The notes beneath the pieces were generated by a model, which saw only the letters and a list, made by a program, of their open reading frames with translations, searched no databases and was not told where the DNA came from. This document shows positions 304 to 19,100 of a stretch of DNA of 35,105 nt, one piece after another (position 1 is the stretch's first letter; every line of letters begins with the position of its first letter). Source of the DNA: a virus. Lineage: Duplodnaviria; Caudoviricetes. A program made the translations under genes and the position numbers. The stretch is taken from the IMG/VR virus record IMGVR_UViG_3300033076_000113, positions 1 to 35,105 of that record. One strand, 5' to 3'.

Positions 304-313
304 GAGACGAGTG

Positions 314-496
314 ATGCGTAAGTTTTTGACCGGCCTGATCGCGGGCCTCGCACTGGGCACTGTCGTGCCAGCGGCTGCTGCTACGTTGGTAGGTGGCACC
401 GGCTACCTGACGGGCTGGACCGTCACCAAGGATGGCGATGAGATTTGCTACATGCCCTACGTCTGGACCAGCATCCGCGAGATCGAGTGCGACTGA
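314..496 (+). CDS. small exported/membrane protein
   Basis: AGGAG RBS at 302-306; MRKF plus hydrophobic stretch and AxA-like cleavage site; two Cys. Confidence 0.7.
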   Translation: MRKFLTGLIAGLALGTVVPAAAATLVGGTGYLTGWTVTKDGDEICYMPYVWTSIREIECD

Positions 497-1203: not shown

Positions 1204-3020
1204 ACGTCATCACCGTAGACTTCGAGACCTTCTACGACCGGCACTTCTCGCTCTCGAAGATGACGACCGAGGAGTATATCCGCGACGAGTTGTTTGAGGT
1301 TATCGGCGTAGCTGTAAAGGTGGGTGACGGGGAGACCCAGTGGTTCTCCGGCCCCAAGGCGCAGACCAAGCGGTGGCTGGAGCAGTTTGACTGGGCGAAC
1401 AGCATAGCTGTGGCGCACAATGCCATGTTCGACATGGCGATCCTGAACTGGCACTTCGACATCCGCCCCAAGCGCATCGCTGACACGCTGTCCATGCTGC
1501 GCGCACTGGACGGGCCAGACGCTGGCAACAGCCTCGCCAAGGCAGCCGAGCGGTATGGGCTGGGGGTGAAGGGCGACGAGGTGGTCAACGCGCTTGGTAA
1601 GGGGCGCATCGACTTCACGCCCGAAGAGCTACACCGCTACGCGCAATACTGCATCAACGATGTGGACCTGACCTACGACCTGTTTAACCGCATCGCAGTT
1701 GGCTTCCCGGCAATCGAGTTTCGCCTGATCGACCTGACGCTGCGGATGTTCACTGAGCCAGTGCTGACGCTCGACGCTACCATCCTGCGGGACCACCTCT
1801 CCGAGGTGCAGCGCAAGAAGAACGAGCTACTGGGCAAAGCGCTCATCTCCAAGGACAACCTGATGTCCAACGGCCAGTTGGCCGAGACGCTGCGCGATCT
1901 TGGGGTAGAGCCGCCGACCAAGATTAGCCCGACTACGGGCAAGGAGACCTATGCCTTTGCGAAGAACGACGAGGCGTTCAAGGCGCTGCTGGAGCATGAG
2001 AACCCTATCGTTCAGGCGATTGTGGCGGCGCGTCTGGGTGTCAAGTCTACGCTGGAAGAGACGCGCACTGAGCGGTTCATCCGGATTGCTGAGCGCGGGA
2101 CCCTGCCCATCCCCCTACGTTACTATGCGGCCCACACGGGACGCTGGGGCGGAGACGACAAGGTAAACATGCAGAACCTCCCCCGGAAGTCGCCACTGAA
2201 GAAGGCGATCCGGGCACCAGAGGGCTATACCTTTATCGACTGCGACTCCTCGCAGATCGAAGCGCGAACCTTGGCGTGGCTGGCTGGGCAGGACGACCTC
2301 GTTGCGGCGTTCGACCGGGGTGAGGACGTTTACAAGATCATGGCCTCCGCCATCTACGGCGTGCCGGTGGACGAGGTGACGGACGACCAGCGGTTCGTGG
2401 GTAAGACCACGATCCTTGGCTGCGGCTATGGGATGGGGGCTGCCAAGTTCCAAGCGCAGTTGCTGACGTTCGGCGTCAAGATGGACCTCGACGAGTGCAA
2501 GCGCATCATTAGCGTTTACCGGGAGACCTACCCCATGATCCCGAAGCTGTGGCGGGCTGCGGGTGACGCGCTAGACGCAATGGCGAACAACCAGACCGCG
2601 CCGCTTGGCCGGGACGGAGTGCTTGTGGTCGAGGGCCGGGAAGGCATCCGGCTACCCAACACGCTGCGTCTACGCTACGAGAACCTGCGCTGGGTGCAGA
2701 CCCCAGAGGGCAAGTCCGAGATGGTCTACGACCAGAAGAAGGGCCGCGCCATCCTCACGACCCGCATCTATGGCGGGAAGTGCGTCGAGAACATCTGCCA
2801 AGCCTTGGCCCGTATCGTGATCGGGGAGCAGATGCTGATGGTCGCACGGCGTTTGCGCGTGGTGATGACGGTCCATGACGCGGTAGGGAGCATTGCTCCT
2901 ACTGAAGAAGCAGAAGACGCGAGACTTTTCGTTGAGCAGTGCATGCGCATCCGCCCCAAGTGGTCGGCCCTGCTGCCGCTGAACTGTGAGAGCAAGATGG
3001 GAGCAAGCTATGGCGGATAA
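1200..3020 (+). CDS. polA: DNA polymerase family A with 3'-5' exonuclease
   Basis: Exo motifs DFET, AHNAMFD, YCINDV; HTGRWGG; motif A DSSQIEAR; motif B RFVGKTTILGCGYG; motif C TVHDA. Confidence 0.97.
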   Translation: MNVITVDFETFYDRHFSLSKMTTEEYIRDELFEVIGVAVKVGDGETQWFSGPKAQTKRWLEQFDWANSIAVAHNAMFDMAILNWHFDIRPKRIADTLSMLRALDGPDAGNSLAKAAERYGLGVKGDEVVNALGKGRIDFTPEELHRYAQYCINDVDLTYDLFNRIAVGFPAIEFRLIDLTLRMFTEPVLTLDATILRDHLSEVQRKKNELLGKALISKDNLMSNGQLAETLRDLGVEPPTKISPTTGKETYAFAKNDEAFKALLEHENPIVQAIVAARLGVKSTLEETRTERFIRIAERGTLPIPLRYYAAHTGRWGGDDKVNMQNLPRKSPLKKAIRAPEGYTFIDCDSSQIEARTLAWLAGQDDLVAAFDRGEDVYKIMASAIYGVPVDEVTDDQRFVGKTTILGCGYGMGAAKFQAQLLTFGVKMDLDECKRIISVYRETYPMIPKLWRAAGDALDAMANNQTAPLGRDGVLVVEGREGIRLPNTLRLRYENLRWVQTPEGKSEMVYDQKKGRAILTTRIYGGKCVENICQALARIVIGEQMLMVARRLRVVMTVHDAVGSIAPTEEAEDARLFVEQCMRIRPKWSALLPLNCESKMGASYGG

Positions 3021-3453
3021 TATACACCCAGTGGTCGAGCTACTGGCAGCCCGGATGGAGAGCCACCCGGAGGAGTTTAAGTTCCACAACGGCAGCAGCC
3101 TCGCGATCACCGGGCGTTGGGAGACTTGGATCAACCAACTTGGCTGGTACTTCAACGAGGCTGAGAAGGAACTGATCTACGGCAAAGCCAAGGAGCTAAT
3201 CTTCCAGCGCGTCCACGAAGAGGTGCTGGACGAGCTACTCAACGGTGAGGAGCGCCGCGCCGAGGAGCGCCGCCAGCGGAAAGAGGCTGAGGAGCGGATG
3301 ATGGCTCAGGTGCAACAAGCTGCCCTTCAACCGGGCCAGTATGCGCAGGTGCAAAGCCTAGGTGCGCTTCAAAGCGCGGGTACCATCCGGCTTGGCAGCG
3401 AGACCATCGACGAGGGCATGCTTAAGCAAATCAAAAGGAAACTAGGGCTATGA
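3010..3453 (+). CDS. hypothetical protein with coiled coil
   Basis: GGAG RBS at 3000; overlaps pol stop; ATGA coupling to next gene. Confidence 0.75.
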   Translation: MADNIHPVVELLAARMESHPEEFKFHNGSSLAITGRWETWINQLGWYFNEAEKELIYGKAKELIFQRVHEEVLDELLNGEERRAEERRQRKEAEERMMAQVQQAALQPGQYAQVQSLGALQSAGTIRLGSETIDEGMLKQIKRKLGL

Positions 3454-4121
3454 GCGAATATCAATTCACCAAAGACTGGTTCAACTGGGCACCGGAGGTC
3501 TGGCAGCAGCTTATCCCGCACCTGCCGGAGCGCAAGTCGTTCCTTGAGATCGGCTCGTTCGAGGGCCGCAGTGCGGTCTGGATCATCGAGAACATGATGA
3601 ACCCCGGCGATTGGATCGACTGCGTTGATACGTGGCAAGGTGGCGAGGAGCATGGCGACGAAGACATGTACGCCGTGGAAGCCCGGTTCGACCACAACAT
3701 CATTAAGGCGCTCAACTGCCAGTCAGCGGATCATCGTAGCCGCGAAGGTAGCTGGGGGCATACCCGGTTCGCCAGCCCCGGCTCAGACGCAGAGAACAAC
3801 CGCGTCTACAAGTACAAGAGCACGTCCACCGAGTTTCTGGGACGCAAGCTGGCGCACTGGGTAGACGGCAAGAACCTCTACGACTTCATCTATATCGACG
3901 GGAGCCACACGGCCCCTGATGTTCTGACTGACGCTTGCATGGCTTGGCCGCTGCTCAAGCCCAAGGGGATGATGGTGTTCGACGATTACATGTGGGGCAA
4001 CCCGCGTGACATCCTCCACCGCCCCAAGCCCGCCATCGACGCCTTCTGCAACCTGTTCGCAGAGACGGCTGAGATCGTCCACGTTGGCTATCAACTGGTC
4101 GTACGCAAGAAGGGAGAGTGA
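3450..4121 (+). CDS. class I SAM-dependent methyltransferase (Methyltransf_24-like)
   Basis: FLEIGSFEGRS, CVDTW, DFIYIDGSH, LKPKGMMVFDDY motifs. Confidence 0.9.
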   Translation: MSEYQFTKDWFNWAPEVWQQLIPHLPERKSFLEIGSFEGRSAVWIIENMMNPGDWIDCVDTWQGGEEHGDEDMYAVEARFDHNIIKALNCQSADHRSREGSWGHTRFASPGSDAENNRVYKYKSTSTEFLGRKLAHWVDGKNLYDFIYIDGSHTAPDVLTDACMAWPLLKPKGMMVFDDYMWGNPRDILHRPKPAIDAFCNLFAETAEIVHVGYQLVVRKKGE

Positions 4122-4122
4122 C

Positions 4123-4308
4123 ATGATTGATCCATTGAGTGCAGCCCTTGGGGTGTTCGTGGGTGCATGTGTCGGTGTCGTGTTCGGCACGATCCGCACC
4201 GGCAAGGTGATCGACGAGCTTAGGGAAGAGAACGCAGCACTGGCATCCCGGCTGCGCCGTCTGACTACCCGTGGTCCGGGTGGTAAGTTCGTCAAGGTTA
4301 ATAAGTGA
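4123..4308 (+). CDS. small membrane protein
   Basis: GGGAG RBS; N-terminal TM helix followed by short coiled coil. Confidence 0.7.
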   Translation: MIDPLSAALGVFVGACVGVVFGTIRTGKVIDELREENAALASRLRRLTTRGPGGKFVKVNK

Positions 4309-4463
4309 CCTACGACCCGCGAAACGGGCCACCGGACAAATGGCTGAACGAGTGGAACGAACGCTCCAAGGCTCGTCTGGTGGCCTTGGGGGTAATGAAA
4401 CCAGAACCTAATTATGGGGAGGGGGTACCCGAAGACATCAAAGCATTTCTGGAGAAGATATGA
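4305..4463 (+). CDS. 52-aa hypothetical protein (not in ORF track)
   Basis: GTGA overlap upstream and ATGA overlap downstream; MTYDPRNGPPDKWLNEW...AFLEKI. Confidence 0.6.
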   Translation: MTYDPRNGPPDKWLNEWNERSKARLVALGVMKPEPNYGEGVPEDIKAFLEKI

Positions 4464-4636
4464 GCCACCGAGTTTTAAACGCTGAACGCATGACTTGGAC
4501 CCCAGCCGCTGACGCTAAGCTGCTACACCTATTTGCGCAGGGGTTAAACAAGATCGACGTCGCCCGAGAGATGGGTGCGTCAATCTCCGCCGTCGAGGCG
4601 CGGTATCGAAAGGTTAGGAATACACATGTCGGATGA
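4460..4636 (+). CDS. 58-aa GcrA-N/Myb-like HTH protein (not in ORF track)
   Basis: GGAGAAG RBS; MTWTPAADAKLLHLFAQGLNKIDVAREMGASISAVEARYRK matches the WT..L..L...G.....IA..LG....AV HTH pattern. Confidence 0.7.
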   Translation: MSHRVLNAERMTWTPAADAKLLHLFAQGLNKIDVAREMGASISAVEARYRKVRNTHVG

Positions 4637-5402
4637 GATTAAGGTGAAACCTGTGGAGCAGAAGCGCCCATCGCTGATGATCGCTACTCCCATGTACGGT
4701 GGTATGTGCACGGGCACCTATGTGCAGGGGTTGCTCTTTACCATGCAGAAAATGCGTGAGGTGGGTGTCAACGTGGCATGGTGCCAGATCATGAACGAGA
4801 GCCTCATCACCCGTGCCCGCAACGAACTGGCCCGTGTGTTTCTTGAGAGCGACCACGACTACCTGATGTTCATCGACGCTGACATCGGGTTCAACGGTGA
4901 GTCCATCCTCCAGCTTATGACTGCGGACAAGGACGTGGCTTGCGGCATCTACCCCAAGAAGGAAGTCAACTGGGATAGCGTAAAGCGCGCTGCACTCGCA
5001 GGTAAGCAGGACCTTGACGACCATGCCGGGGCATTCGTGTTCAACATGGTTGGGGGTGATGCTGAGACTGACGAGCACGGGTTCTTCGAGGTGCGCCATG
5101 GCGGCACCGGGTTCATGCTCATCAAGCGCGGGGTGTTCGAGCACCTCAAGCCACATGTGCCGACCTACCGGACCAATTCGTTCCAGAACCCAGACGGCAC
5201 TTACCAGAAGCCGCTGACCCATGAGTTCTTCGCTACGTCTATCGACGCATCCGGAGCGCTCCTGTCGGAAGACTACCACTTCTGCGAACTGGTGCGGGAG
5301 CATGGGGGCAGCATCTGGGCCAACCCGTTCATCCGCTTGACCCACACCGGAACCTACGTGTTCGACGGTGACATCCTGAAGTCCGGAGGCAATCTGAAAT
5401 GA
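4626..5402 (+). CDS. GT-A fold glycosyltransferase-like protein
   Basis: IATPMYGG, ESLITRARN, MFIDADIGF (DxD), GTGFMLIKR, LSEDYHFC. Confidence 0.85.
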   Translation: MSDEIKVKPVEQKRPSLMIATPMYGGMCTGTYVQGLLFTMQKMREVGVNVAWCQIMNESLITRARNELARVFLESDHDYLMFIDADIGFNGESILQLMTADKDVACGIYPKKEVNWDSVKRAALAGKQDLDDHAGAFVFNMVGGDAETDEHGFFEVRHGGTGFMLIKRGVFEHLKPHVPTYRTNSFQNPDGTYQKPLTHEFFATSIDASGALLSEDYHFCELVREHGGSIWANPFIRLTHTGTYVFDGDILKSGGNLK

Positions 5403-5668
5403 CCGATGTAACTGAAGTACTCGAAGAGCGTGGCAGCAGGTACGGCTCCTTTAAGGGGCACGCCGATATAACCCAGAAGCTCAAGCACGTGATGGGGCGT
5501 GGGGATAGCTGGCACAAGCTGGCCCCCGACCAGAAGGAAGCTCTCGACATGATCGCCCATAAGATCGGACGCATCGTTAACGGAGACCCTGACTACGCCG
5601 ATAGCTGGATCGACATCGCCGGGTACGCCAAGTTGGTGGCTGACCGGCTAGAAGGAACGGTGCGGTGA
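5399..5668 (+). CDS. DUF6378-like protein
   Basis: ERGSRYG...MIAHKIGRIVNGD...DSWIDIAGYA signature. Confidence 0.8.
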   Translation: MTDVTEVLEERGSRYGSFKGHADITQKLKHVMGRGDSWHKLAPDQKEALDMIAHKIGRIVNGDPDYADSWIDIAGYAKLVADRLEGTVR

Positions 5669-5874
5669 AACTGCCCGACGAGCTACGGGAGGTCCTCGAT
5701 AAGACGGGCCTCCCATGGGAGGTCGAGGTGGGGAAAAAACACAACAAAGTAAAGCTGGCAGGACGGCTCGTTGCAGTGTATCCCCATGGTAAGGCGCAGG
5801 AGCGGTATCGCCGTGCGCTGCTCAACACCATAACCCAAGTGCGCCGCACGGCGCGGGAGCTACGACCCTCATGA
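5665..5874 (+). CDS. small basic protein, possibly HicA-like fold
   Basis: GTGA/ATGA coupling; WEVEVGKKHNKV G-x-x-H turn followed by strands and C-terminal helix. Confidence 0.6.
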   Translation: MKLPDELREVLDKTGLPWEVEVGKKHNKVKLAGRLVAVYPHGKAQERYRRALLNTITQVRRTARELRPS

Positions 5875-6542
5875 CCGCTTGGTCCTACAGCAGCATCAAG
5901 ACCTTCGACCAGTGCCCCAAGAAGTACTTCCACCTCAAGGTGGTCAAGGACGTCAAGGATGACCCCGGTGAGGCCGCTGTCTATGGGACCGAGGTGCATG
6001 AGGCAGCCGAACTGTACATCAAGGACGGCACGCCGATCCCCAACAAGTTTGCCTTCATGCGCCCCATCGTGGAGCCGCTGGCAGCTAAGCCGGGTGAGAA
6101 GCTGACCGAGATGAAGCTGGGCCTCAAGAAGATCGAGGATGGCTACGAGGCTTGCGGGTTCTTCGACAAGGACGTTTGGTACCGGGGCATCGTGGACCTT
6201 CTGATCCTCGATGGCGACCGGGCTTGGATGATCGACTACAAGACCGGGAAGAACGCCAAGTACGCCGACATGAAGCAGCTTGACCTTATGGCTGGTGCGC
6301 TATTCGTAAAGTACCCGGACCTGAAGGTCATCAAGTCGGCGCTGGCCTACGTGGTCAGCCACGAGTTTCCGAAGAAGACCCACAAACGCGAGAACCTGAA
6401 CGAGTACCTATCGGTGTTCGATAATCAGTTGGATCGGTTGGAAGCCGCCATGGAAAATGGTATATGGAACCCAGTGTCGTCTGGCCTGTGCCCATGGTGC
6501 CCAGTGACCACCTGTGAGAACTGGCGACCGAGGAGGAAGTAA
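5871..6542 (+). CDS. PD-(D/E)xK Cas4-like exonuclease
   Basis: WSYSS...CP, GTEVH, GIVDL, IDYKTGK, QL..A, C-terminal CPWCPVTTC. Confidence 0.9.
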   Translation: MTAWSYSSIKTFDQCPKKYFHLKVVKDVKDDPGEAAVYGTEVHEAAELYIKDGTPIPNKFAFMRPIVEPLAAKPGEKLTEMKLGLKKIEDGYEACGFFDKDVWYRGIVDLLILDGDRAWMIDYKTGKNAKYADMKQLDLMAGALFVKYPDLKVIKSALAYVVSHEFPKKTHKRENLNEYLSVFDNQLDRLEAAMENGIWNPVSSGLCPWCPVTTCENWRPRRK

Positions 6543-6832
6543 TGGCCCGCAACTACCGCGAAGAGTACGACCGCTACCAAGGTCGGCCAGAGCAGATCAA
6601 GAACCGGGCGCAGCGCAACGCTGCCCGTGCCAAGATGATGAAGAAGGGCAAGGTTCACAAGGGCGATGGTAAGGACGTTGCCCACGTCAAGGCTATCGAC
6701 AAGGGCGGCTCGATCAAGGACGGCCTCCGAGTTGAGAGCAAGTCCACCAACCGCTCGTTCCGCAGGGACAGCAAAGGTAACCTCGTGAGTGAGACGAGCA
6801 AGCGCGAACGCGTCCGTAAGAAGATTAAGTAG
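6542..6832 (+). CDS. HNH-type endonuclease-like protein
   Basis: GAGGAGG RBS; GDGKDVAHVKAIDKGGS...LRVESKSTNRS. Confidence 0.8.
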   Translation: MARNYREEYDRYQGRPEQIKNRAQRNAARAKMMKKGKVHKGDGKDVAHVKAIDKGGSIKDGLRVESKSTNRSFRRDSKGNLVSETSKRERVRKKIK

Positions 6833-6853
6833 TACACCACTAGGAGCAAACTG

Positions 6854-8395
6854 GTGCAGATTATCGACAACAAAGCCCTCCTCTTGGAGGTGGCTGACCC
6901 CTCTGTGGTTACTGACCACATCCACAATAGCGCCGCAGTTAAGGAAGGCGTGGTTGTCAAATGGGGACACACTGAGACGGAAATCCTAGCCAAGCTGGGG
7001 TTCGAGGCTCCCTCGCCCATGCTCAAGTCCTACGAGTGGACGGGTAAGCTCACGCCCTTTGAACACCAGAAGACCACGGCATCATTCCTCTCGATCCGGC
7101 GCAGGGCTTTCTGCTTCAACGAGCAGGGCACTGGCAAGACGGCCAGCGTCATCTGGGCAGCCGATTACCTCATGAAGCGTGGGCTGGTGAAGCGCGTGCT
7201 GGTGCTGTGCCCCCTGTCGATCATGAAGTCGGCGTGGCAGCAGGACCTGTTTAAGTTCGCCATGCACCGGTCGTGCAGCGTGGCACACGGGACCGCCAAG
7301 CAGCGCGAGAAGATCATCAACGCAGGGGCTGAGTTCGTCATCATCAACTTCGACGGGCTGGCTATCGTGAAGGACCAGATTATCGCTGGTGGGTTCGACC
7401 TGATCGTGATCGACGAGGCCAACGCCTACAAGAACGCGCAGACCAACCGCTGGGGTGTCCTCAACAAGATCGTCAAAGAGACTGACCCGCGTCTGTGGTT
7501 GCTTACTGGTACGCCAGCAGCACAGTCCCCACTGGACGCTTACGGCCTCGCCAAGCTGGCCGACACGCCGAACTGCCCCAAGTACTACGGTCAGTACCGC
7601 GACAAGGTGATGATGAAGGTCACTACGTTTAAGTGGGTGCCCAAGGCCAACGCGCAGGACGTGGTGCATAGCATCCTCCAGCCAGCCATCCGGTTCGAGA
7701 AGAAGGACTGCCTCGACCTACCGGAGGTTACCCATATTGAAAGAGAGGCACCGCTCACGCCGCAGCAGGCTAAGTACTACGCCCAGTTGAAGAGCCAGAT
7801 GCTGATCGAGGCATCGGGCGAAGAGGTCAGCGCGGTCAACGCAGCGACCAAGATCAACAAGCTGCTCCAGATCAGCGGAGGCGCAGTCTACACGGACGAA
7901 GGCTCGGTGCTGGAGTTCGACGTCTCCAACCGCCTGAACGTGGTCATGGAAGTGATCGAGGAAGCCAGCAACAAAGTGCTGGTGTTCGTGCCGTTCACCC
8001 ATACCATCGAGCTTCTGCGGGCCAAACTGGAGAAGGCAGGGATCACCTGCGACGTCATCAACGGTAAGGTGCCAGTTAATCGGCGCTCGGAGATCGTCCA
8101 GCGGTTCCAGACCCACAAGGACCCCCATGTCCTGATTATCCAGCCACAGGCAGCCTCTCACGGCCTTACCCTTACGGCGGCAGACACAATCATCTGGTAC
8201 GCCCCGGTCACCAGCGTGGAGACTTATCTACAGGCAAATGCCCGTATCAACCGCCCGGGCCAGAAGAATGCTATGACCGTGGTCCACATCCGTGGCAGCG
8301 AGGTCGAGGAGCGCCTCTACCGGATGCTGCAAAACAACATTGAGAACCACGAGAAAATTATCGACCTCTACCGTCAAGAACTTGACATTGTATAA
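6854..8395 (+). CDS. SNF2-family helicase
   Basis: EQGTGKT, IDEA, LLTGTP, HGLTLT, QANARINRPGQ motifs; AGGAG RBS. Confidence 0.95.
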   Translation: MQIIDNKALLLEVADPSVVTDHIHNSAAVKEGVVVKWGHTETEILAKLGFEAPSPMLKSYEWTGKLTPFEHQKTTASFLSIRRRAFCFNEQGTGKTASVIWAADYLMKRGLVKRVLVLCPLSIMKSAWQQDLFKFAMHRSCSVAHGTAKQREKIINAGAEFVIINFDGLAIVKDQIIAGGFDLIVIDEANAYKNAQTNRWGVLNKIVKETDPRLWLLTGTPAAQSPLDAYGLAKLADTPNCPKYYGQYRDKVMMKVTTFKWVPKANAQDVVHSILQPAIRFEKKDCLDLPEVTHIEREAPLTPQQAKYYAQLKSQMLIEASGEEVSAVNAATKINKLLQISGGAVYTDEGSVLEFDVSNRLNVVMEVIEEASNKVLVFVPFTHTIELLRAKLEKAGITCDVINGKVPVNRRSEIVQRFQTHKDPHVLIIQPQAASHGLTLTAADTIIWYAPVTSVETYLQANARINRPGQKNAMTVVHIRGSEVEERLYRMLQNNIENHEKIIDLYRQELDIV

Positions 8396-8410
8396 TAGAA
8401 GGAGTAGAGC
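8382..8410 (+). promoter_or_regulatory. putative sigma70-type promoter
   Basis: TTGACA (8382-8387), 17 bp, TAGAGC (8405-8410) in an AT-rich gap upstream of the SSB/primase block. Confidence 0.5.
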
Positions 8411-8417
8411 AGGGATC

Positions 8418-8431
8418 GTGGCGCAAGCCAC
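8418..8431 (+). other. GNRA tetraloop leader hairpin
   Basis: GTGGC-GCAA-GCCAC immediately upstream of the AAGGAG RBS. Confidence 0.55.
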
Positions 8432-8446
8432 ATGAAGGAGCAACTT

Positions 8447-8851
8447 ATGTCAGAGCAACAAAACGTAGCCGACCTTGTGGCGGTGTACCGCAAACTGCGG
8501 GCAGCCATCGCAGAGGCGGAAGAAGAACATGAGACCAAGATCAAAGGTCTTAAGGAGCAGATGGACCTTGTGTCTGCTGAACTCCTCAACTTCTGCAATG
8601 AGCAGAACCTCGACAGCGTGAAGACGCCAGCGGGGACCATCTCACGGCGTGTCCAGACCCGTTACTGGACCACCGACTGGGAGCAGATGAACAACTTCAT
8701 CGTGGAGCACAATGCTGTGCACCTGCTGGAGAAGCGCATCCATAACGGTAACATGAAGCAGTTTCTGGAAGAGAACCCGGACGCTCTCCCCATCGGCCTA
8801 CAGGTCGATAACAAGTACGTGATCCAAGTCCGCAAACCGAGCGAGAAGTAA
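8447..8851 (+). CDS. conserved phage replication-module coiled-coil protein
   Basis: AAGGAG at 8435-8440 favours ATG 8447; coiled coil then SVKTPAGTISR...DWEQM. Confidence 0.8.
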   Translation: MSEQQNVADLVAVYRKLRAAIAEAEEEHETKIKGLKEQMDLVSAELLNFCNEQNLDSVKTPAGTISRRVQTRYWTTDWEQMNNFIVEHNAVHLLEKRIHNGNMKQFLEENPDALPIGLQVDNKYVIQVRKPSEK

Positions 8852-9796: not shown

Positions 9797-10024
9797 ATGC
9801 GAGGCTACAGCATCCGCGTAGCCGAGGCTATTCAGGGGGCTGATGCCAGTCTCCTCGGGGTGCAACTCGGGCGGGCTTGTCTCGCCCGGGACATCTCCGT
9901 CTCGGAAGCAGCGAAGGGGTTGAACGTCACGCGCCAAACGGTCTACCACTGGTTCCTTGGGCTGAGTGAGCCAAGGGGCAAGGCCCGGGACGCGATCCAG
10001 ACCTACCTAGCCTCGTTCGACTGA
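9797..10024 (+). CDS. XRE/Cro-like HTH protein
   Basis: ISVSEAAKGLNVTRQTVYHWFLG. Confidence 0.85.
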   Translation: MRGYSIRVAEAIQGADASLLGVQLGRACLARDISVSEAAKGLNVTRQTVYHWFLGLSEPRGKARDAIQTYLASFD

Positions 10025-10066
10025 GGCAACCATTAGAGCAAATTAATAGCGGGATTTCCCGCAACG

Positions 10067-12922
10067 GTGAGTGATGCAATGCAACAACCTGATCTCTTGA
10101 CCCTAGTGCAGCCAGCGGAAGGCTGGTTCGCCATCACGGGCATCAAGGGTAAGGGTAAGAACGCTGACGTCCGTCAGGAGCTTGTGGCTACGCGAGAAGA
10201 GGCAGATGCCCTCGTCGAGCAGTTCGTCCAAGCCGGGCGCAATGCGTTCTTTGGGGTGGCTAAGTACAAGACGGGTGACAACCGCAAGAAGGAGAACGTC
10301 CTTGGCCTCAAGGCGTTCTGGCTCGATGTGGACTGCGGCCCGGACAAAGCGGAACCCAACCCCAAGACCGGACGGCCTGACGGCTATGTGGACCAGAAGG
10401 CGGGGCTGGATGCCCTGATGGGCTTCTGCAAAACAATCGGTCTCCCTATCCCTACTCTCGTAAACTCCGGCGGTGGTATCCACGCCTACTGGCCTCTGGA
10501 AGAGACTGTATCCCGGCGCGACTGGGAGCCTGTGGCTGAGCGCTTCAAGGAAGTGTGCCGCACCCAGAACTTCTACGTTGACCCGGCTGTCTTCGAAGTG
10601 GCGCGCATCCTGCGTGTCCCCGGCACGTTCAACTTCAAGGAAGAAGAGCCGCGCCCGGTCGAGTTCATCCATGTGGGCAAGCCTACCACGCTGGAGGCTA
10701 TGCGCGCTGCGCTCGGTGTTAAGAAGCAAGCGTCGATCTTCGACGACGACTTCGAGATGACCCCACGCCAGAAGGCCATGATGAGCGGGGTGGGCTACAA
10801 CTTTAAGAAGATCATGCAGCGCACCGCCAAGGGTGATGGCTGCAACCAGCTTCTACACGCGTACCAGCACCGGGATAGCATCACTTACCACGAATGGTTC
10901 TACGCGCTCTCTGTGGCTGCCATGTGCGAGGACGCCGATAAGGCGGTGCACATGATGTCTGATGGGCATCCGGACTATGACCCGGAGACCGTGGACAAGA
11001 AGGTAGCCACCATCAAGAAGGCGACCAGTTGCGCCAAGTTCCGCAGTGTCAATCCTGACCTGTGCGATGGTTGTCCACATCTGGATAAGATCATGGGACC
11101 CAAGGAACTGGGCAAGGTGGTCAAGGAGTCCAACGAGGACTTTGTAGAGGTTGAGGTCGAGCCGGGTGTGGTCGAGCAGATCGACATCCCTAAGTATCCG
11201 TTCCCGTTCTACCGGGGCGAAGATGGCGGTATCTGGCGCAAACCACCCAAGGACGCGCCTCCTGAAACGGAACCCATGTTCGTCTATCCGTACGACTTCT
11301 ATGTCGTGAAGCGGATGCACGATCCGGGTGAGGGCGACTCGGCGCTAATGAGACTGCACCTACCACAGGATGGGTTGCGTGAGTTCATTGTGCCCATGGC
11401 GAAGGTAACCACGAAGGATGAGCTTCGCAAAATCCTCTCGTCCAACGGGGTCTACTCCTACGGGGCACGGTTCGACGCGCTGATGGACTACGTCCTCAAG
11501 TCAGCAGAGCAGCTACAAGACAGACAGAAAGCAGAGATCATGCGGCAGCAGTTTGGTTGGGTCGATAACAACAGCCGGTTCGTGCTGGGCGACCAAGAGA
11601 TCACCGTCGAGGGGAATGTCTACTCCCCTCCGTCTAAGGCCACTAGCAAGCTGGCCAAGTTCATCGGCCCGGTGGGCACGCTGGAGAACTGGAAGGAAGT
11701 CTGGGCGCTGTTTGGCCAAGAAGGGATGGAAGCACAGGCGTTCGCTGCGCTTAGCGCGTTTGGCTCTCCGCTGCTCAAGTTCCTCAACCAGACCGGGGCC
11801 ATCATCAACCTGTTCAACCCGCGCTCCGGTACGGGTAAGACCACGATCCTCAACATGGTGAACAGTGTCTACGGGCACCCGAAGGAACTGCGCCTCAAGG
11901 AGATCGACACTATGAACGGTCGGCTCCAGTGGGTGGGCATCCTCAATAACCTGCCGCCTACGATGGACGAGCTTACCAACGCCACGCCGAAGGAATATTC
12001 GGACCTGCTCTACATCATGTCCAATGGTAAGGGTAAGGAGCGCATGTTGGCGGGGTCCAACGAACTGCGCGAGAACAACACCACATGGCAGAACATCACG
12101 GTCTCGACATCCAACTCGTCGTTCGCTGAGAAGCTGTCGGTCCTCAAGGATAACCCGGAAGGCGAACTGATGCGCCTGATCGAGTACCCCATCGGGCTGG
12201 TAGACGCGATCAACACGGCGCATGCCAAGAACCTGTTCGATCAGGTGCTGTTCGCTAACTACGGGCACGCTGGACCGGTCTACATCCGCTACCTACTGGC
12301 CAACCTAGAGCAGGTTCAGACCAAGTGCCTCGCCATGCAAGCCAAGATCGACAAGGAGCTTCAGCTTCTTCCCAAGGAGCGGTTCTGGTCAGCCACGTTC
12401 GCTGCCAACATCCAAGGTGGGCTGTTCGCCAAGCGGTGCGGTCTGATCGACTGGGATATGACCCGTATCTATAACTGGTCGTGCAAGCAGATCGAGCGGC
12501 TGCGGGTCGAGACTGAGGCCCCTCTTGACGGACCAGAGCAGGCGGTCGGTGATTACCTCTACCGGCATATGCAGAACATCCTCGTCGTCAACGGTGAGGC
12601 TGACCGGCGCACTAACCTGTACGCAGGGCCGGTGCGCGAACCAAAGGGTGAGTTGCTGGTCCGCATCGAGCCGGACACCAAGATGATGTTCTTCATCGCC
12701 AAGCACTTCAAGGAATACTGCGTTAAGTACCAGATCAACTACAACCAGACCCTCGACAAGCTGGAGCAGCAGGGCCGTCTGGTGAAGAAGGCTGGGAAGC
12801 GCCTGTCCAAGGGTATGGCGGTCTCCGGTGAAAATATCCACTGCCTCTGGTTCAAGCTCTCGGAAGACTTCGTCGGGGTAGACGAGTACGTCCAGCCGGA
12901 CGCCGAGGACGATGCTGATTGA
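10067..12922 (+). CDS. primase-helicase (RepB-like primase plus DUF927-type ATPase); start may be ATG 10079
   Basis: WLDVD, NSGGGIHAYW, RILRVPGTFN primase motifs; Cys cluster; SGTGKTT Walker A, MDE Walker B, GKGKER. Confidence 0.9.
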   Translation: MSDAMQQPDLLTLVQPAEGWFAITGIKGKGKNADVRQELVATREEADALVEQFVQAGRNAFFGVAKYKTGDNRKKENVLGLKAFWLDVDCGPDKAEPNPKTGRPDGYVDQKAGLDALMGFCKTIGLPIPTLVNSGGGIHAYWPLEETVSRRDWEPVAERFKEVCRTQNFYVDPAVFEVARILRVPGTFNFKEEEPRPVEFIHVGKPTTLEAMRAALGVKKQASIFDDDFEMTPRQKAMMSGVGYNFKKIMQRTAKGDGCNQLLHAYQHRDSITYHEWFYALSVAAMCEDADKAVHMMSDGHPDYDPETVDKKVATIKKATSCAKFRSVNPDLCDGCPHLDKIMGPKELGKVVKESNEDFVEVEVEPGVVEQIDIPKYPFPFYRGEDGGIWRKPPKDAPPETEPMFVYPYDFYVVKRMHDPGEGDSALMRLHLPQDGLREFIVPMAKVTTKDELRKILSSNGVYSYGARFDALMDYVLKSAEQLQDRQKAEIMRQQFGWVDNNSRFVLGDQEITVEGNVYSPPSKATSKLAKFIGPVGTLENWKEVWALFGQEGMEAQAFAALSAFGSPLLKFLNQTGAIINLFNPRSGTGKTTILNMVNSVYGHPKELRLKEIDTMNGRLQWVGILNNLPPTMDELTNATPKEYSDLLYIMSNGKGKERMLAGSNELRENNTTWQNITVSTSNSSFAEKLSVLKDNPEGELMRLIEYPIGLVDAINTAHAKNLFDQVLFANYGHAGPVYIRYLLANLEQVQTKCLAMQAKIDKELQLLPKERFWSATFAANIQGGLFAKRCGLIDWDMTRIYNWSCKQIERLRVETEAPLDGPEQAVGDYLYRHMQNILVVNGEADRRTNLYAGPVREPKGELLVRIEPDTKMMFFIAKHFKEYCVKYQINYNQTLDKLEQQGRLVKKAGKRLSKGMAVSGENIHCLWFKLSEDFVGVDEYVQPDAEDDAD

Positions 12923-13106
12923 GGGCGTCACCTATGATGTGGACTGGCCGAGGTTCAAAAAGGGGAGGTCGCTCTTCTTCCCCTGCCTCGATCAGGCACG
13001 CGCCGAGACACAACTAATGGTGGTCCTCAACCGCCTCCGCATCAAGGTCTTGGTCAAGCACGTTATCGAAGACGGGATTAGGGGTTTACGGGTCTGGCGC
13101 ATGTGA
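12912..13106 (+). CDS. hypothetical protein
   Basis: GAGGA RBS; ends GIRGLRVWRM, a frequent ending in small phage DNA-binding proteins. Confidence 0.75.
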   Translation: MLIEGVTYDVDWPRFKKGRSLFFPCLDQARAETQLMVVLNRLRIKVLVKHVIEDGIRGLRVWRM

Positions 13107-13113
13107 GTATACG
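13085..13113 (+). promoter_or_regulatory. putative promoter for junction sRNA
   Basis: TTTACG (13085-13090), 17 bp, TATACG (13108-13113), ending 6 nt before hairpin 1. Confidence 0.55.
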
Positions 13114-13119
13114 GGCGCT

Positions 13120-13195
13120 GGAAGTTTGCTCCTTCCGTCGGGTGCATTGCATCACTCCCGAACCCCCGGCTGCCTCACTCAGCCGGGGGTTTTTT
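13120..13195 (+). ncRNA. candidate three-hairpin trans-acting antisense sRNA
   Basis: Hairpins GGAAG/CTTCC (13120-13136), TCGGG/CCCGA (13138-13161) and terminator; 11-15 nt exact complementarity to helicase and primase start regions. Confidence 0.7.
13161..13195 (+). terminator. intrinsic terminator between convergent modules
   Basis: AACCCCCGGCTG-cctcact-CAGCCGGGGGTT followed by T run. Confidence 0.9.
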
Positions 13196-16100
13196 ATTGC
13201 CCAAGCTCGGCTGCGCGCCGTTCCGCCTCAGACTGACGCACTGGGATTTTCGGATTGTAGCCAAGGCCACCTTCCCGCTGCGCAGCATCCGCGCTCTTAC
13301 TGGCGTAGGACTTCTGCTTGTCTTCCTCAGTGATCTCGTTCGACGGGTAGTTGAGGTTGTAGATTTTGATCGCCCGCTCGGCTTCCTGAAACTCCTTGGC
13401 GGTCTCAGGGGTCGGGTTGAGGTAGTAGGCCCGAGCAGCGCGGTACCGCTGACCCAGCAACTGGGTAGCCTCAGCAGCGATGCCCTTTTCGATGTCAGTG
13501 GCGGCGATGTCCAACTGCATGTTGCGCGAAGTCTCTGCGTCACCAAACCCGAGAGACTGCATCCCCGTCTTGTACAGGGTGTAGTAGCTGGGGTCCTTTA
13601 GCATAACATCACGGTCTGCCCCCACCACGAGACCTTCGTCCCGCAGCCGCTGGGCCTTGATGAAGTTGCGGATCATGGCGGGCATGCCCGTCTCAATGGC
13701 CTTATCAATGTCCCCAGCGTTGAACTGCTTCCACGACTTAAGGAACGAGGCATACATAGAGCCAGTGGCACCAGCACCGGCACGCCCCATGAACTCGAAC
13801 AGCCGCACCTCAGGGTCATCTGACTTAGTAGCAACCGGGTGCCACAGATCGCCCAGTGAGACCGATCCAGACAGGTCTACGTTAAAGAGGCCCGGAAGCC
13901 CGATGTCGGCGGCTGCCTCCAGCTTCTTCGCCGCAGTGTCACCAACACCCAGCATAGAAGCCAGTGTGCCGTTGGGTCCAAACATCTGGGGAATCCATTC
14001 GGTCCGGATGTAGTACTCCATATCCTTCTTGCTCAGTTCGTGCCCCTTTTCGTCGGCGTACTTGAGCATTTCCTTCTGGATGGTCTCGTCGGTCAGGTAG
14101 CCGCCAGCAACTTCCTTGTCCTTGTCCTCATCATCGTCACCCAGACCCTTGACGAACTCCATCAGACCGTAGCCCAGCATGGCGAGGGCATAGAACTGAG
14201 TAGCACGGAAACCGCCGTAGAGCGCGGTCATCGCCCCCACGCCGAAGAACACCTTGGCCGAGGCGACCTTACCTTCCTTGTTGAAGTACGGGAGCATCCC
14301 GTAGAAGCTACGGAACAGCAGCGACGACATGGTGATGCTGTACGAGCGCATCTGAAGTGCCAGCCGCCCGACCGGTGCCTTGGAGTAGCGCGACTTGTTC
14401 CAGTTGGTGAAGTCGAACATCGCCTTCCGGGTGAGCTTGTCTGCCTGTTTCATGGCAGCATCACCAGCAGCAGCCGGGTCCATGCCTCCCTTGAGATTGC
14501 GCTCGTAGGCCAGTTCGAAGGCCGACATATACATGATCTCACGCCCGATACGCTCGGTGCTATGGAAGAGCGCACCCATGGCATTGATGGCGTTCCCAGT
14601 AGCCCTCTGGGCTGCGGTCAGCACTTCCCCACGGCGCAGAGCCTGCACGGCCCCAAAGTCCCCGGTGGGGGTATCAGCACGCTCATAGATGTCTGCCCCC
14701 GCTGAGAACGTGCTCTCGGTGACGTCGTGGTCCTTGGCGTACTCCCATGCCTTCTGCATAGCAGCGTAGCGGTCAGGATCGGTCTCTTGCAGGCCACGGA
14801 TGTACGCGCTGTCTTCCGCCGTGAACTTGGGGAACTCCAGCTTCACATTACCTTCTTCGTCCCGGAACGGGACCGCCATGCGCTTACCGGTCAGCAGTTC
14901 TGCCGTGTAGCGGGTAGCCATGCCGTAGGTGGCCTTCTCACCAAACTCAGCCGACAGGGTGGGCAGACCCACGATGTGAAGCTGGGTAAGGTTCATGGCA
15001 GCCGACTTCACCCCGGACAGGAAGAAGAGGAAGGTGCCCTTGGCATTGACGCTGACGAAGCGGTCAAACCAGCCATTGATGTCTGGCGACATGATCCCTT
15101 CAACGCGCATCTCGATCTCGCGGGTCATCGTATCCAGCCGGGGCTTGGACGGATTACCCGCAGTCTCGGCGTAGGATGCCTCGATGAGGTTCTTCAGCCT
15201 GTAGTTGTACGCAAGCCTGCCAAGCTGGCTGGCAGAGGCTACCGCAGTAGACGCAAAGGTGCGCAGTGCGTCGGTGCTGAAACCAGTCTTGAACTCGCGG
15301 TGGATGAAGCGCCGACGCATGTCTGCCTCAGGCAGCGCCATCAGGTACATCTGGAAGATGTTGTCCTTGAGGACGTCCACATCGGTGACATTGTCCCCCT
15401 CGATCTTGTCGAGGATGTTCCGGAGTGCCACGCTGGCGTCCGCAGCCTTGCTACGCAGTCCGTTGCGCAGGGTGTCCTTACCTTGGCTGAAGTCGATAGC
15501 GCGCGTCTCACCCTCGGCCTTAATCTTCCGGACGAAGTCCTGCTGCTCTCCGAGGCTTTCGAACAGGTGAAACTCGCTGTTCGGACCCTTACCGACGCTA
15601 ACCCAGTATTCACCAAAGCGCTTGAGCGGGAAGTAGATGCTGCGTGCCCGCGCCTTGGCGAACATTTCATCGACCGCCGACTTAAGCTCGACAGCCTTCT
15701 CGTTCTCGAACTGAGATGCGTCGATGCGCTCCATGAGGAGACGGTAGTGCTCCTCGAAGGTATTGCGGTAATGGTCCCGGGCCAGACGGAAGATGCGCTT
15801 GCCAGCGCCGCCACCCATCTTGGCATCCGACAGGTCGTTCCAACCATACACCTTAGCGCCAGTGTCGGGGTCTTCACCACCATAGTAGACGCGCTGGATT
15901 TCCCCACGGCGGCGGCTGATCTGCCCCTTGAGCGCGTTCTTTTTCTTCGGGTCCGTTTCGGCTGCTAGCTTAGTAGCAAGCTCGATCAGCTTGGTATCAA
16001 CCTTGGCGTACTCTGCTGCCGACGCAGCCAGCGTTGGGTCCACATCGTACATGTTGGCGATGTACATTACATCGGCCAGCGCCTGATTGCCCTCCTCAAA

Positions 16101-19100
16101 GCGCGAGGCAAACTCAGTCCACTTCTCGGATACAGACGAAGCAGCCTGCATAAGCCGATTGATGTAGGGGCTGTACTCATCCCGGATCATATCGTCGATC
16201 TTCGAGATGTTCTCCATGCCAGCACGCTCAGCGAGGCGCACCACGTCCTCGGTCATCATCGGACCAAGCAGCTTCTGGAGGAGCGGTGGGGGGACGCTAT
16301 TGAAGAGGCTCGTCAGGAGATTGACGTCGTCGTTCTGACCACGCGCAAGCAGCATCAGCTTACCCGACAGGCTCAGGGCCTCTTCGGCATTACGGCTCTT
16401 AACGATCCGCTGCTGCATGTTGCTGAGCTTCATCCGGCGGATACCGGCGGCTTCTTCCAGTCGCTTGATCTGCCCCTTGGTCAGCTTGGCTGATACAACC
16501 TGATCGACGTTGGCGTCAGTTACCGGCTCCGTGCCACCCTGAGCGCCTGCTCCAGTGTCCCGCCCTGCTCCAGCACTGCCAGTACGTTCGAAAGATGGGC
16601 CGAGTACGGATTCCCCGGTGCTTCCTGCTCCGCTAGGTCCGCGTACGTCGCCAGTTCCGCCGTCGCCTGCTCCTTCGGATGCTTGCTCTGGGCTGCCTTC
16701 TGTAAAACGATTTCCGCGATATTCGACGGTGATGTCGGGGTTTTTGCCATTGAAAAGCTCCACGCCGAGTTGGACAATATCGGCATAATCGTTGGCGACT
16801 GTAGTCGCAAAAGCAGTCTTGAACCAGTCATAGTCGAACTGGTCATCAGCTTCCAAGTTCAACAGGATGTCCTGCATCTCGGCAGGGAAGTTAGCGTTAT
16901 GGCTGCGCACCTTATGGTGAGCAAGCTCGTGAACCATCGTGCCGACGATGCCGTAACCAGCGCGCAGACCATCCCCATACTTGGGGACCAACGGGTTGAT
17001 GAAGCTACCTGAGAACGGCAGCCGGATCGAGACACCACGATACTCAGGGTCAAACGAGACACCAATCGCTTCGTCGCGGAGGCTACCATAACCCATGACG
17101 CGAGCGACTTCGTTGCGCAGCGTGAGGAACGCGTCCCCGTTGTAGCGCATGAAGTCATCAAAGCGCTGCCCGAACCGGCGGCGCATATAGTCCGGGATCG
17201 ACATCTTCTCACCAGTGGCGTTGATGACCACATCGGTGTTGTCGTGGACCATGACCGCATTCGTGTCGATGAGGTCCGGGCTAACCGTAAGGTCGCTGGC
17301 GCTCGGGATACCAGCCTTCAGTTCATCCGGGGTCAGTTCGGGCATTTCCTGCCCGTTGACCAGCAGTTCCCCGTTCTCGCCAACCGTGATCTGGTCGCCC
17401 TCTGCAATGCGCGTGAAGGCCGTGTCCTGCACCGGGATGTCCGGCGTAAGGTCTACCATCGGGCCAAGCTGGCCATCGGGCTGAAAGTACTGGATGCTAC
17501 CGAAGCTCGTCGCTTCTCCAGCCCTACTCTTGTAGGCATAGATAGCGTCAACGTACTTCTTAACCTTACCAAACTCCATCTTGGCGTCGTCGGTAAAGTT
17601 TTGGCGGTTGAAGTTGAACGGGTACCCCGGCTGGTCCGGCTTCACGGACGGCACGATGTCCACATAGAAGGTATAAGGGACCGAAGGCCCCCACATGTCT
17701 GAAGGGTCTTTCTTCACCGCAGTCGAGAACTGCCACAGCCCGTTCGACAGGATGTGCATGTTCTCACCATAGGTCTGCGCGGTCTGGTTGCGAGTGACAT
17801 AGACCTTGGCAGTACCCCATGGGAACTTCACTCCGACAAACTGGGTGTAGTCCTCAACTGGGAAGTTCGAGCCGACCTTAACGTCTTCTGGCCCCATGTA
17901 GCTGCGACCTTGGAAGGTGACAGCGATGTTCGAGAACAGGGGGCTGAGTTCAAGTGACGGGACGCCATCCAGCCAGCGGGGAAGCTCCTTGATTTTGTAG
18001 TCGCCAGCTTCTTCCGGGATCGTCAACTGGATGATGGTGCCATGCCCGTCAGGGAACACCATGAAGTCCGGACCCGCAAAGTCACGGACCTCGATGTCCG
18101 GGGCCTGATTAGGATCGTCGAGTGAAGCGAAAAGCTGCTCGCCTGTCACGTCCATCTCAGCGATGCGCCCATCCCGCGCAGTGGTCACGCGGATGTTCTT
18201 GTTGGCGTAGAGGAACAGCATCTTGGCGATGCCGAAGCCGCCCGCGTTCTTGTCGCCTTCCTTGGCCGTACCAGCGATCTCAAGGAACTTACCGCCCAGC
18301 AGTTCGGGCGTCATACCGATCCCGTTGTCCTTGACCGTCAGCTTGCGGCCATCATCCGAGACGACGATGTCGATCTTACCCTGCTGGACCTGCCCTTCGT
18401 TAACCGCAGTCCGGGTAGCGTCGAACGAGTTCTGGAGGACTTCCTTGATGCAGACCTGACCCATATTGGTCGGGTCACCATAAAGCTGCGGGCCGAGCAT
18501 CTTAGCCATGCGGGTGGCGTTGATCCCCGGCTTGGCGCGGATCGTCTCGTACTCAGGATCGTAGGGCGTTACCTGCTCGACCATGTCCTCCTTTGGCATG
18601 GCATCGACTTCCGCCTGTGCCATGTTGAGGACCTTCTCAGCCGCAGTCTTACCGGGCTTGCGCTTAATGGTCGCCTTGACCGCCTTGGCCTTGGCACCCT
18701 TGGTACCGACCGCCTTGACCTTCTCCGGTGCGCGAGCGGGAGCAGCCTTAGCTGCTGCTTGCGTAGGTGCAGCCTGCGCTTCAGCGACGCGTTCTTGTGC
18801 CCACTGCTGCCCAGCCTTGTAGGCGTCCAGAGCGTCTTGGCCCTGCGCTTCTAGGATTTGCTGGTCGGGGAGCGGCTCACGCCCACGCTGAGTGTCCACT
18901 GCGCCTTCACGGAACATGCCCGGATCAAGGCCACGGTCCTGCGCTTCCGACACGGCGAAGCGGTCGAGGTTCTCCGCAATCTGCTGCGGAGTGTACTGCG
19001 GTTCTGGCGTGATAGAAGGTGCTTGGGTGGCGGGGCGCACCATGCTGCCGTCAGGCTGCTCTTGGAAGCCGAAGCCCTTGTACCATTCGGTCAGTTCGGT

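Follow-up and report, generated by a model that had tools for sequence, protein, structure and literature searches.

A candidate phage small RNA complementary to an extended ribosome-binding-site tag at early gene starts

Several described RNAs and sequence motifs offer comparisons for the subject of this report, a predicted small RNA (sRNA) encoded at positions 13120-13197 of a 35,105-nucleotide stretch of viral DNA (Caudoviricetes; IMG/VR record IMGVR_UViG_3300033076_000113; the whole stretch is hereafter called the window), whose loop complements an extended ribosome-binding site (RBS) found at early genes of the phage. The plasmid copy-number RNAs RNAI and CopA are cis-encoded and fully complementary to one target; what the element would share with them is a loop pairing predicted to restrain replication proteins in proportion to gene dose. 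In phages P1 and P7, the c4 RNA forms three stem-loops, is released by RNase P from a longer transcript, and maintains lysogeny and immunity, according to the available parts of the source (PMC5320573). The start-associated sequence (SAS) and its extended form (ESAS) occur in cluster K mycobacteriophages and cluster EF Microbacterium phages, and their role is called unknown, “either RNA or protein,” in the available portions of the papers (PMC3203893, PMC7302621, PMC11373665, PMC12699233); a single SAS in opposite orientation is reported for four K1 phages (PMC3203893, in part). Finally, trans-acting bacterial anti-Shine-Dalgarno (anti-SD) sRNAs and the phage RNAs VpdS, PreS, and SviR resemble the element in having a short seed, several targets, and an intrinsic terminator. 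However, those RNAs act on host genes, a helper phage, or single phage switch genes (sar, OOP, aQ), and the available sections of PMC12197685 mention no sRNA that recognizes a dedicated RBS tag shared by an entire class of genes of its own phage.

The window is part of the genome of an uncultured freshwater phage (its own record, G000, is 56% complete). Early genes lie on the + strand, virion and lysis genes on the - strand converge on them, and a gap of 87 nt (13107-13193) separates the two arms. Folding of this gap gives a 5-bp hairpin whose loop reads UUUGCUC, followed by a weak linker and an intrinsic terminator. We conclude that this element is a real, conserved candidate for a phage sRNA with a predicted, tag-defined early regulon. 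It is probable, judging from sequence, that 13120-13197 is a self-standing sRNA gene whose loop complements a private extended RBS tag, and that the RNA would act in trans to repress early translation by pairing over the Shine-Dalgarno (SD) sequence. The predicted parts of the element are as follows.

13120..13197, + strand: predicted small RNA, about 78 nt, its 5' end placed by promoter spacing
13120..13136, + strand: hairpin 1, GGAAG-UUUGCUC-CUUCC; seed 1, the complement of AGGAGCAAAC, with the loop predicted to be unpaired
13143..13157, + strand: seed 2, part of the variable linker and exactly complementary (15/15) to the start region of the primase gene
13160..13197, + strand: intrinsic terminator, a 13-bp stem and U tract, where the early and late arms meet
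13085..13090, + strand: predicted -35 element, TTTACG, within the last codons (G-L-R) of a 64-aa open reading frame (ORF)
13108..13113, + strand: predicted -10 element, TATACG, after a 17-nt spacer and without a T at -7

An earlier note on this DNA had proposed that a shared GGAGCAA defines a regulon for hairpin 1, and every string that it quoted is present where it had placed it. Its three tag pairings hold base for base, as the following list of sites shows.

3000..3009, + strand: tag before gene 3010-3453 (function not assigned), pairing 10/10 with one G-U
6842..6852, + strand: tag before the SNF2-type helicase gene, AGGAGCAAACT, an 11/11 exact complement of 13123-13133
8434..8446, + strand: tag before the Mu Gam-like gene; GAAGGAGCAA at 8434-8443 is complemented 10/10 by 13126-13135, and CTT pairs after one bulged U
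10069..10083, + strand: seed-2 site, GAGTGATGCAATGCA, which spans both the SD-like GAG and the start codon (ATG, 10079) of the primase-helicase gene
309..317, + strand: candidate further seed-2 site, GAGTGATGC, 9 nt, at the start of gene 311/314-496

The 5'-terminal 40 nt of the element complement three of the 37 start regions of the window exactly, over 15, 11, and 10 nt. When this part was shuffled 1000 times with CTCC kept, no start region was matched over at least 10 nt in 951 shuffles, one in 48, two in 1, and three in 0. When the gap sequence is compared with the entire window, its two longest complements fall at the primase start (15 nt) and at the helicase RBS (11 nt, a length that two intragenic sites equal). 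The 15/15 match of seed 2 to GAGTGATGCAATGCA is the longest of the element anywhere in the window, and this site has the lowest duplex energy of the 37 start regions. In a related genome (G001, L331:2002-2031), the leader of a VWA/metallopeptidase gene carries both seed sites colinearly, GAGTGATGCA and then AGGAGCAAAC, and so has the form of a two-seed target.

The earlier note had also placed a weaker site in the primase leader. The string, GAGCAAATT, is indeed present at 10036-10044, but we reject it as a target: It lies 35 nt before the ATG and upstream of a leader hairpin, GAGCAA occurs there in only 9 of 71 relatives, and the order would be wrong for one colinear duplex. Seed 2 matches the primase gene instead. 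A small covarying hairpin, GCGGG...CCCGC at 10049-10062, lies just 5' of the primase SD; most of the relatives compared retain it, and it is possibly a translational operator or a processing site.

To place these matches in a family context, IMG/VR was scanned by protein and by pattern; the 64-aa ORF was recovered at 180 loci, whose downstream regions show 123 distinct sequences. These comprise 81 with a GCTCCT hairpin (carriers), 24 with the same layout and other loops, 14 that are element-less, and 4 that were dropped as having a miscalled or truncated terminator (L146, L163, L268, L284). The element family thus spans more than 100 distinct loci of uncultured phages, among which primase identity falls as low as about 30%; the median primase identity of the other-loop group is 37% within the group and 34% to the window's clade. 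Of 119 exact 17-mer matches in viral contigs, 30 are unrelated coding sequence. One lineage (L019, L021-L024, L224-L237) has no gap, the 64-aa ORF abutting the late giant gene, and its SD sites at replication genes are weak or absent; L271 and L298 retain the terminator only.

In the window itself, the number of GGAGCAA copies is not above chance (9, against a shuffle mean of 5.6; 15 of 100 shuffles reach 9). The tag is nonrandom by position rather than by count, because all three copies on the early sense strand (3000, 6843, 8437) are at gene starts, as the earlier note had observed, each 3-4 nt before the start codon, and none of the 16 called late starts carries one. For a broader comparison, 31 related records were examined and the three bases following GGAG at starts were recorded identically for all. 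CAA follows GGAG at 120/283 early and 0/219 late starts in carriers (14 records), compared to 4/116 early and 3/79 late starts in element-less relatives (8 records) and 3/142 early and 2/58 late starts in the other-loop group (10 records). The earlier note had held that a tag equally common in phages without the hairpin would speak against a regulon; the tag proves far rarer there. One rearranged record, G031, is counted in these totals and was left out of the tag consensus, wobble, promoter survey, 7-mer test, and genome copy counts.

A comparison of starts with gene interiors, which the earlier note had recommended, gives the same picture. Across 13 carriers, GGAGCAA on the early sense strand occurs 122 times at called starts and 23 times elsewhere, and on the late sense strand once at a called start and 21 times elsewhere. 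Twelve near-complete carriers have 7-12 tagged starts each, so the predicted regulon is larger than the window reveals, and the tag AGGAGCAAAC stands at about a quarter to two fifths of the family's early starts. Tagged genes encode an AAA ATPase, a VWA/metallopeptidase, a resolvase-like nuclease, helix-turn-helix (HTH)-type proteins, the helicase, the Gam-like protein, and early proteins without an assigned function; polymerase, exonuclease, and single-stranded DNA-binding protein (SSB)-like starts are mostly untagged in the window's clade. Individual orthologues agree: GGAGCA is present at the helicase start in 41/62 carriers vs. 0/13 element-less loci, at the Gam-like start in 68/71 carriers, 1/24 other-loop loci, and 0/14 element-less loci, and in 14/29 start regions of orthologues of gene 3010-3453. 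The consensus, AAGGAGCAAAC, mirrors the loop and 3' arm of hairpin 1. Its commonest variants, G, G, and T at the last three positions, fit wobble pairing and are equally plain transitions. In a motif-free test, the complement of the element contains the commonest early-start 7-mer in 13/13 carriers, 0/8 element-less records, and 7/10 other-loop records (the last with small counts and ties).

The placement of this tag recalls SAS, as far as the available parts of the SAS papers describe it. Both are private SD extensions a few bases before nonstructural starts only, in one orientation, with a lone opposite copy. SAS sits at the RBS and is conserved beyond 16S pairing; here, 126/143 GGAGCA sites lie 4-6 nt before the start, and the early/late counts given above match its restriction to nonstructural genes. 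However, the 13-bp SAS consensus, GGGATAGGAGCCC, differs from that of the tag, which is shorter (7-10 nt vs. 13), and the phages and host group are unrelated.

If loop and tag are partners, they should change together, and in the other-loop group both differ from those of the window's clade, with helicase, Gam-like, and SSB-like starts matching the loop of their own genome. For example, the L247 loop, TTCTCCTGTTG, occurs with CAACAGGAGAA at the helicase and Gam-like starts, and matches 11, 11, and 10 nt at the helicase, Gam-like, and SSB-like starts. Likewise, the loop ATGTTGTTCTCC of L264 occurs with the tag GGAGAACAACAT (12 nt), GTCGTTTCTCCTT of L288 with AAGGAGAAACGAC (13 nt), GCACTCTCCT of L307 with AGGAGAGTG, and CTCATCATTCT of L308 with AGAATGATGAG. 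When pairing with each genome's own element was compared with swapped pairing in this group, the Gam-like and SSB-like starts each gave z -4.0, and the controls, primase and the 6542 gene, were null. With one locus per cluster, own pairing at the Gam-like and SSB-like starts together remains at z -5.0 at 80% primase identity (14 clusters) and -4.8 at 70%, and that at the helicase and Gam-like starts is at z -4.1 in 80% clusters (19 clusters).

The linker behaves in a related manner toward the primase start. Own pairing in the window's clade gives z -7.4 overall and -3.0 at 80% clusters (28), and linker and primase start change together in L026, L039, L083, L109, L131, and L078. The pairs by sub-lineage are GATGCA/TGCATC, GATGTG/CACATC, GATGTA/TACATC, GATGCC/GGCATC, GTGTGCC/GGCACAC, and GGAGGGTTA/TAACCCTCC. 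Most other clade members have a linker without a primase match, and the L044 linker matches the Gam-like leader instead.

The element itself also shows features expected of an RNA gene with its own promoter and intrinsic terminator, which, together with an exposed seed that complements and covaries with several RBSs, would place it among the anti-SD sRNAs on the basis of sequence conservation. The fold of 13120..13197 has z = -4.0, and none of 200 shuffles is as stable. Stem variants of hairpin 1 (GACAG/CTGTC, GCAAG/CTTGC, GGAAAG/CTTTCC) flank a constant GCTCCT, with two-sided changes in 3 of the 5 pairs. In L040:16426-16500 and L042:9550-9625, an additional hairpin with the loop CCCCTCC or CTCCTCC precedes hairpin 1, which suggests modular seed gain, and the C/U-rich terminator loop (13171-13180), CCTCACT/CTCACT, a conceivable third seed, recurs in several sub-lineages. 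No Rfam family matches the window at gathering score. We found no description of this RNA in the open literature (subscription papers not covered), and the hairpin is absent from six of the supplementary files that accompany a catalogue of 10,006 viral candidate RNAs (PMC10690425), whose files 1, 2, and 4 were not searched and may hold the motif.

The predicted promoter is conserved, and its -35 element lies within a coding region. The Leu codon of G-L-R is TTA in 68/79 carriers, TTG in 11/79, and CTN in none, although TTA makes up 4.6% of early-gene Leu codons, and this feature is not present in element-less relatives. A TA at 16-18 nt spacing is found in 79/79 carriers, even where the ORF stop codon is shifted, and a TA hexamer lies 5-8 nt 5' of hairpin 1 in 76/81. 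This conserved spacing implies an RNA of 59-82 nt (median 71 among relatives) beginning at hairpin 1, and a promoter 6 nt before the hairpin points to a primary 5' end rather than a processed one. The -10 hexamer ends in T in only 14/79 carriers; TGnTAnnnT occurs in 16/24 other-loop loci. Because most alphaproteobacterial sigma70 promoters lack that T (PMC8407463, in its available part), an alphaproteobacterial host for the window's clade is a reasonable guess, no more. Seven contigs of metagenome-assembled genomes from mixed taxa appeared in the genome scan, one of them binned as Caulobacteraceae and carrying the element, but a bin assignment does not count as evidence of the host. A comparison with 50,697 phage records found no DNA match to a cultured relative, the best helicase identity being about 40%.

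We propose the following course of events, building on the complementarity, the early-start restriction, the absence of the tag in element-less relatives, and the matched loop/tag change between lineages, all of which are read directly from the genomes. Host sigma70 would transcribe the sRNA from the TTTACG/TATACG promoter. The 7-nt loop would make initial contact with a tag, and pairing would then spread into the stem. At the helicase this contact may be loop to loop: The fold of the RBS (6835-6856) exposes GAGCAAA as a 7-nt loop that complements the 7-nt loop of the sRNA (a kissing geometry), and GAGCA is predicted within a hairpin loop in 30 of 41 carriers. The variable linker would serve as a second, fast-evolving seed, here over the primase start codon. 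Repression of translation is the most likely outcome of pairing over the SD. Given a host-type promoter and a gene that replicates along with the genome, the sRNA would build up with time and genome number, resulting in delayed negative feedback on early and replication proteins, and late starts, which lack CAA, would remain open to ribosomes. Such a timing role, a delayed brake, is the weakest step of the proposal.

The same pairing might serve another purpose. An RNA made mainly in a persistent or carrier state, or from the first infecting genome, could confer immunity by silencing early genes, either those of the resident phage or those of a relative that superinfects, as c4 does, and we regard this as unlikely. 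The host-type promoter would suit it, a tag common to a wide clade would make cross-silencing possible, and loops that differ by lineage resemble immunity types. The likeness to c4 extends further, since c4 (in the available parts of PMC5320573) is a phage RNA of about 77 nt with an RBS-occluding segment and a specificity segment that targets messages of its own phage. However, the element has its own predicted promoter and terminator and faces 7-12 tagged early starts in a phage without a detected integrase. Rather than the three-stem fold of c4 with its a' and b' loops, it comprises a 5-bp hairpin, an unconserved linker, and a terminator, and c4 is not among the 14 weak Rfam matches up to E 10. 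Where c4 acts on an antirepressor operon, the targets here are helicase, Gam-like, AAA ATPase, VWA/metallopeptidase, nuclease, and unassigned early genes, and no antirepressor family was matched in the proteins scanned. No integrase, partition, or CI-like family appears among 43 early and divergence-region proteins of G002 and G003 (many without any match) or among 37 window proteins, and lytic timing is favored over immunity because integrase and repressor families are lacking in the scanned proteins. A near-invariant loop across a clade of about 50% primase identity also suits self-timing better than an escape race.

Alternatively, the element could be only the 3' untranslated region (UTR) of early messages, pairing in cis with one RBS of the same molecule, for which icaR is the model. 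The element does lie between the last early ORF and the operon terminator, and G001 and G025 have no predicted terminator in the early arm, so that read-through messages would contain the seed. We nevertheless consider this improbable, given the conserved internal promoter at fixed spacing. Action in trans is favored because the sites are many and served by several promoters: 7-12 tagged starts extend across about 20 kb, one 3' end cannot cover them in cis, and in G003 a predicted terminator at 20739 intervenes between five tagged genes and the element.

There is a small chance that the tag is instead an operator for a phage RNA- or DNA-binding protein, with the hairpin acting as a same-sense decoy on the late (-) strand. 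That strand also folds (z -3.9), placing GAGCAAA in a loop, and an A run able to stop late transcripts is present in few loci (7/81). The promoter, the U tract, and the G-U pairs of the terminator (93 on the + strand vs. 14 on the - strand among 105 loci, the terminators having been picked on +) all favor a + strand RNA. Moreover, such a protein would have to track many tags and start-codon-spanning matches of 10-15 nt that vary by genome. RNA-RNA pairing is preferred because the matches move with a separate locus and span both SD and start codon.

Slightly less probable still is that the RNA pairs with the tags and raises expression, by opening leader hairpins or protecting messages. The helicase SD is predicted inside a hairpin in the 30 of 41 carriers mentioned above, which would allow such a role, but it is the SD itself that lies within the duplex (along with the AUG, in the case of primase), and in characterized anti-SD sRNAs an SD-covering duplex blocks 30S binding. 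In favor of chance, a C/U-rich loop matching ordinary SD sequences, are the universality of GGAG and a window total of GGAGCAA that does not exceed shuffles. This reading is very hard to sustain, since the early/late and carrier/noncarrier contrasts, the CTCC-keeping shuffles, and the own-versus-swapped pairing all contradict it.

Several points weigh against a trans-acting repressor RNA as proposed above. The RNA is predicted only, the six runs examined being assembled contigs, and repression is assumed from the position of pairing over the SD. Read-through early messages end in the same seed sequence. G031 keeps hairpin 1, yet has CAA at 1/35 starts; in this record the late genes are on the same strand, and the helicase, Gam-like, and HTH starts retain GGAGCA. 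Covariation of linker and primase is weaker at 70% clustering (median z -1.9, worst p 0.23) and is confined to part of the family, with at least 6 nt exact in about a third of rows. Several other-loop loci (L259, L267, L280) have no match of at least 7 nt to the orthologues tested. The seed-flank G-U asymmetry expected for + strand RNA-RNA pairing is equivocal (8:3, 12:10, 17:15), a result that also counts toward the protein-operator reading. Raw duplex energy ranks nontargets high (the exonuclease, 6542, and a late gene), and was used only in own-versus-swapped tests. Sampling matters as well: The 68/81 identical hairpins are partly due to the exact-pattern search, the element-less group was picked by eye, the genomes are related so that p-values are descriptive, and gene calls come from a simple codon-model caller. 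A relative's 70-nt metatranscriptome contig at 13120-13190, the predicted extent, was not counted, because an assembly also ends its contigs where it branches, and their limits say nothing about the ends of an RNA.

To our knowledge, little is known of early-gene shutoff in lytic phages that encode neither a polymerase nor a sigma factor of their own. If the repressor proposed here is real, one RNA of 70-80 nt would address about ten of the phage's own genes via a private RBS tag, constituting a class-wide translational switch, and the loop/tag lineages would form a natural set of orthogonal sRNA/RBS pairs. It would also bear directly on the SAS question, open in papers from 2011 to 2025. Phages might more generally employ a “tag and reader” design, in which a lineage barcode in early RBSs, rewritten repeatedly during evolution, is paired with a modular sRNA that shuts the class down, with SAS of K1 phages as another case and its lone opposite copy as the reader loop; we hold this to be possible, somewhat short of an even chance. 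In Adephagia, there are 16 forward SAS copies and one reverse copy (JF704105 58682-58694; L438:30640-30740), which lies in the loop of a long intergenic hairpin. This stretch is present in 131 mycobacteriophage records, and in 6/6 aligned phages the loop is kept and the stem shows compensatory and G-U changes. The loop is a candidate antisense reader of SAS, a lead and not a general explanation. The Adephagia hairpin lies after a terminator-like stem, whereas hairpin 1 precedes its terminator, and no opposite SAS copy was found within the parts of the TM4 and Pixie genomes examined.

The early arm also encodes a family A polymerase and an exonuclease. The genes referred to above, and one promoter within the arm, are as follows.

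6854-8395, + strand: SNF2-type helicase gene
8447-8851, + strand: Mu Gam-like gene
+ strand, 313 aa: SSB-like gene, a label from position alone, no family match naming the protein
9797-10024, + strand: HTH protein gene
10079-12922, + strand: primase-helicase gene, ATG at 10079
12912..13106, + strand: conserved 64-aa ORF, function not assigned, whose 3' end holds the predicted sRNA promoter
8382..8410, + strand: predicted sigma70 promoter, TTGACA, partly palindromic, for the Gam-like/SSB-like/HTH/primase genes

The 64-aa ORF has no Pfam or PHROG match. A minus-strand ORF of 51 aa overlapping the element (12992-13147) was rejected, an ATG ORF of at least 30 aa being found in just 11/81 carriers. 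The late protein encoded across the gap (13194-21146; 2650 aa) has a DarB-like PHROG match in its C-terminal part, which varies strongly between close relatives (25-60% identity).

Most of 13 carriers surveyed have a TTGACA promoter at the end of the helicase gene. Early promoters (8382-8395 and its equivalents in G001-G030) that serve the Gam-like/SSB-like/HTH/primase genes, as well as other tagged genes, frequently show a palindrome, TTGACA-N-TGT(C/A)AA, in the -35 region. A subset of SAS has an upstream inverted-repeat promoter (ESAS); the partly palindromic TTGACA promoters that precede several tagged genes here may correspond to it. The palindromic -35 region is a candidate operator for the HTH protein (9797-10024), an arrangement that would be reminiscent of ESAS.

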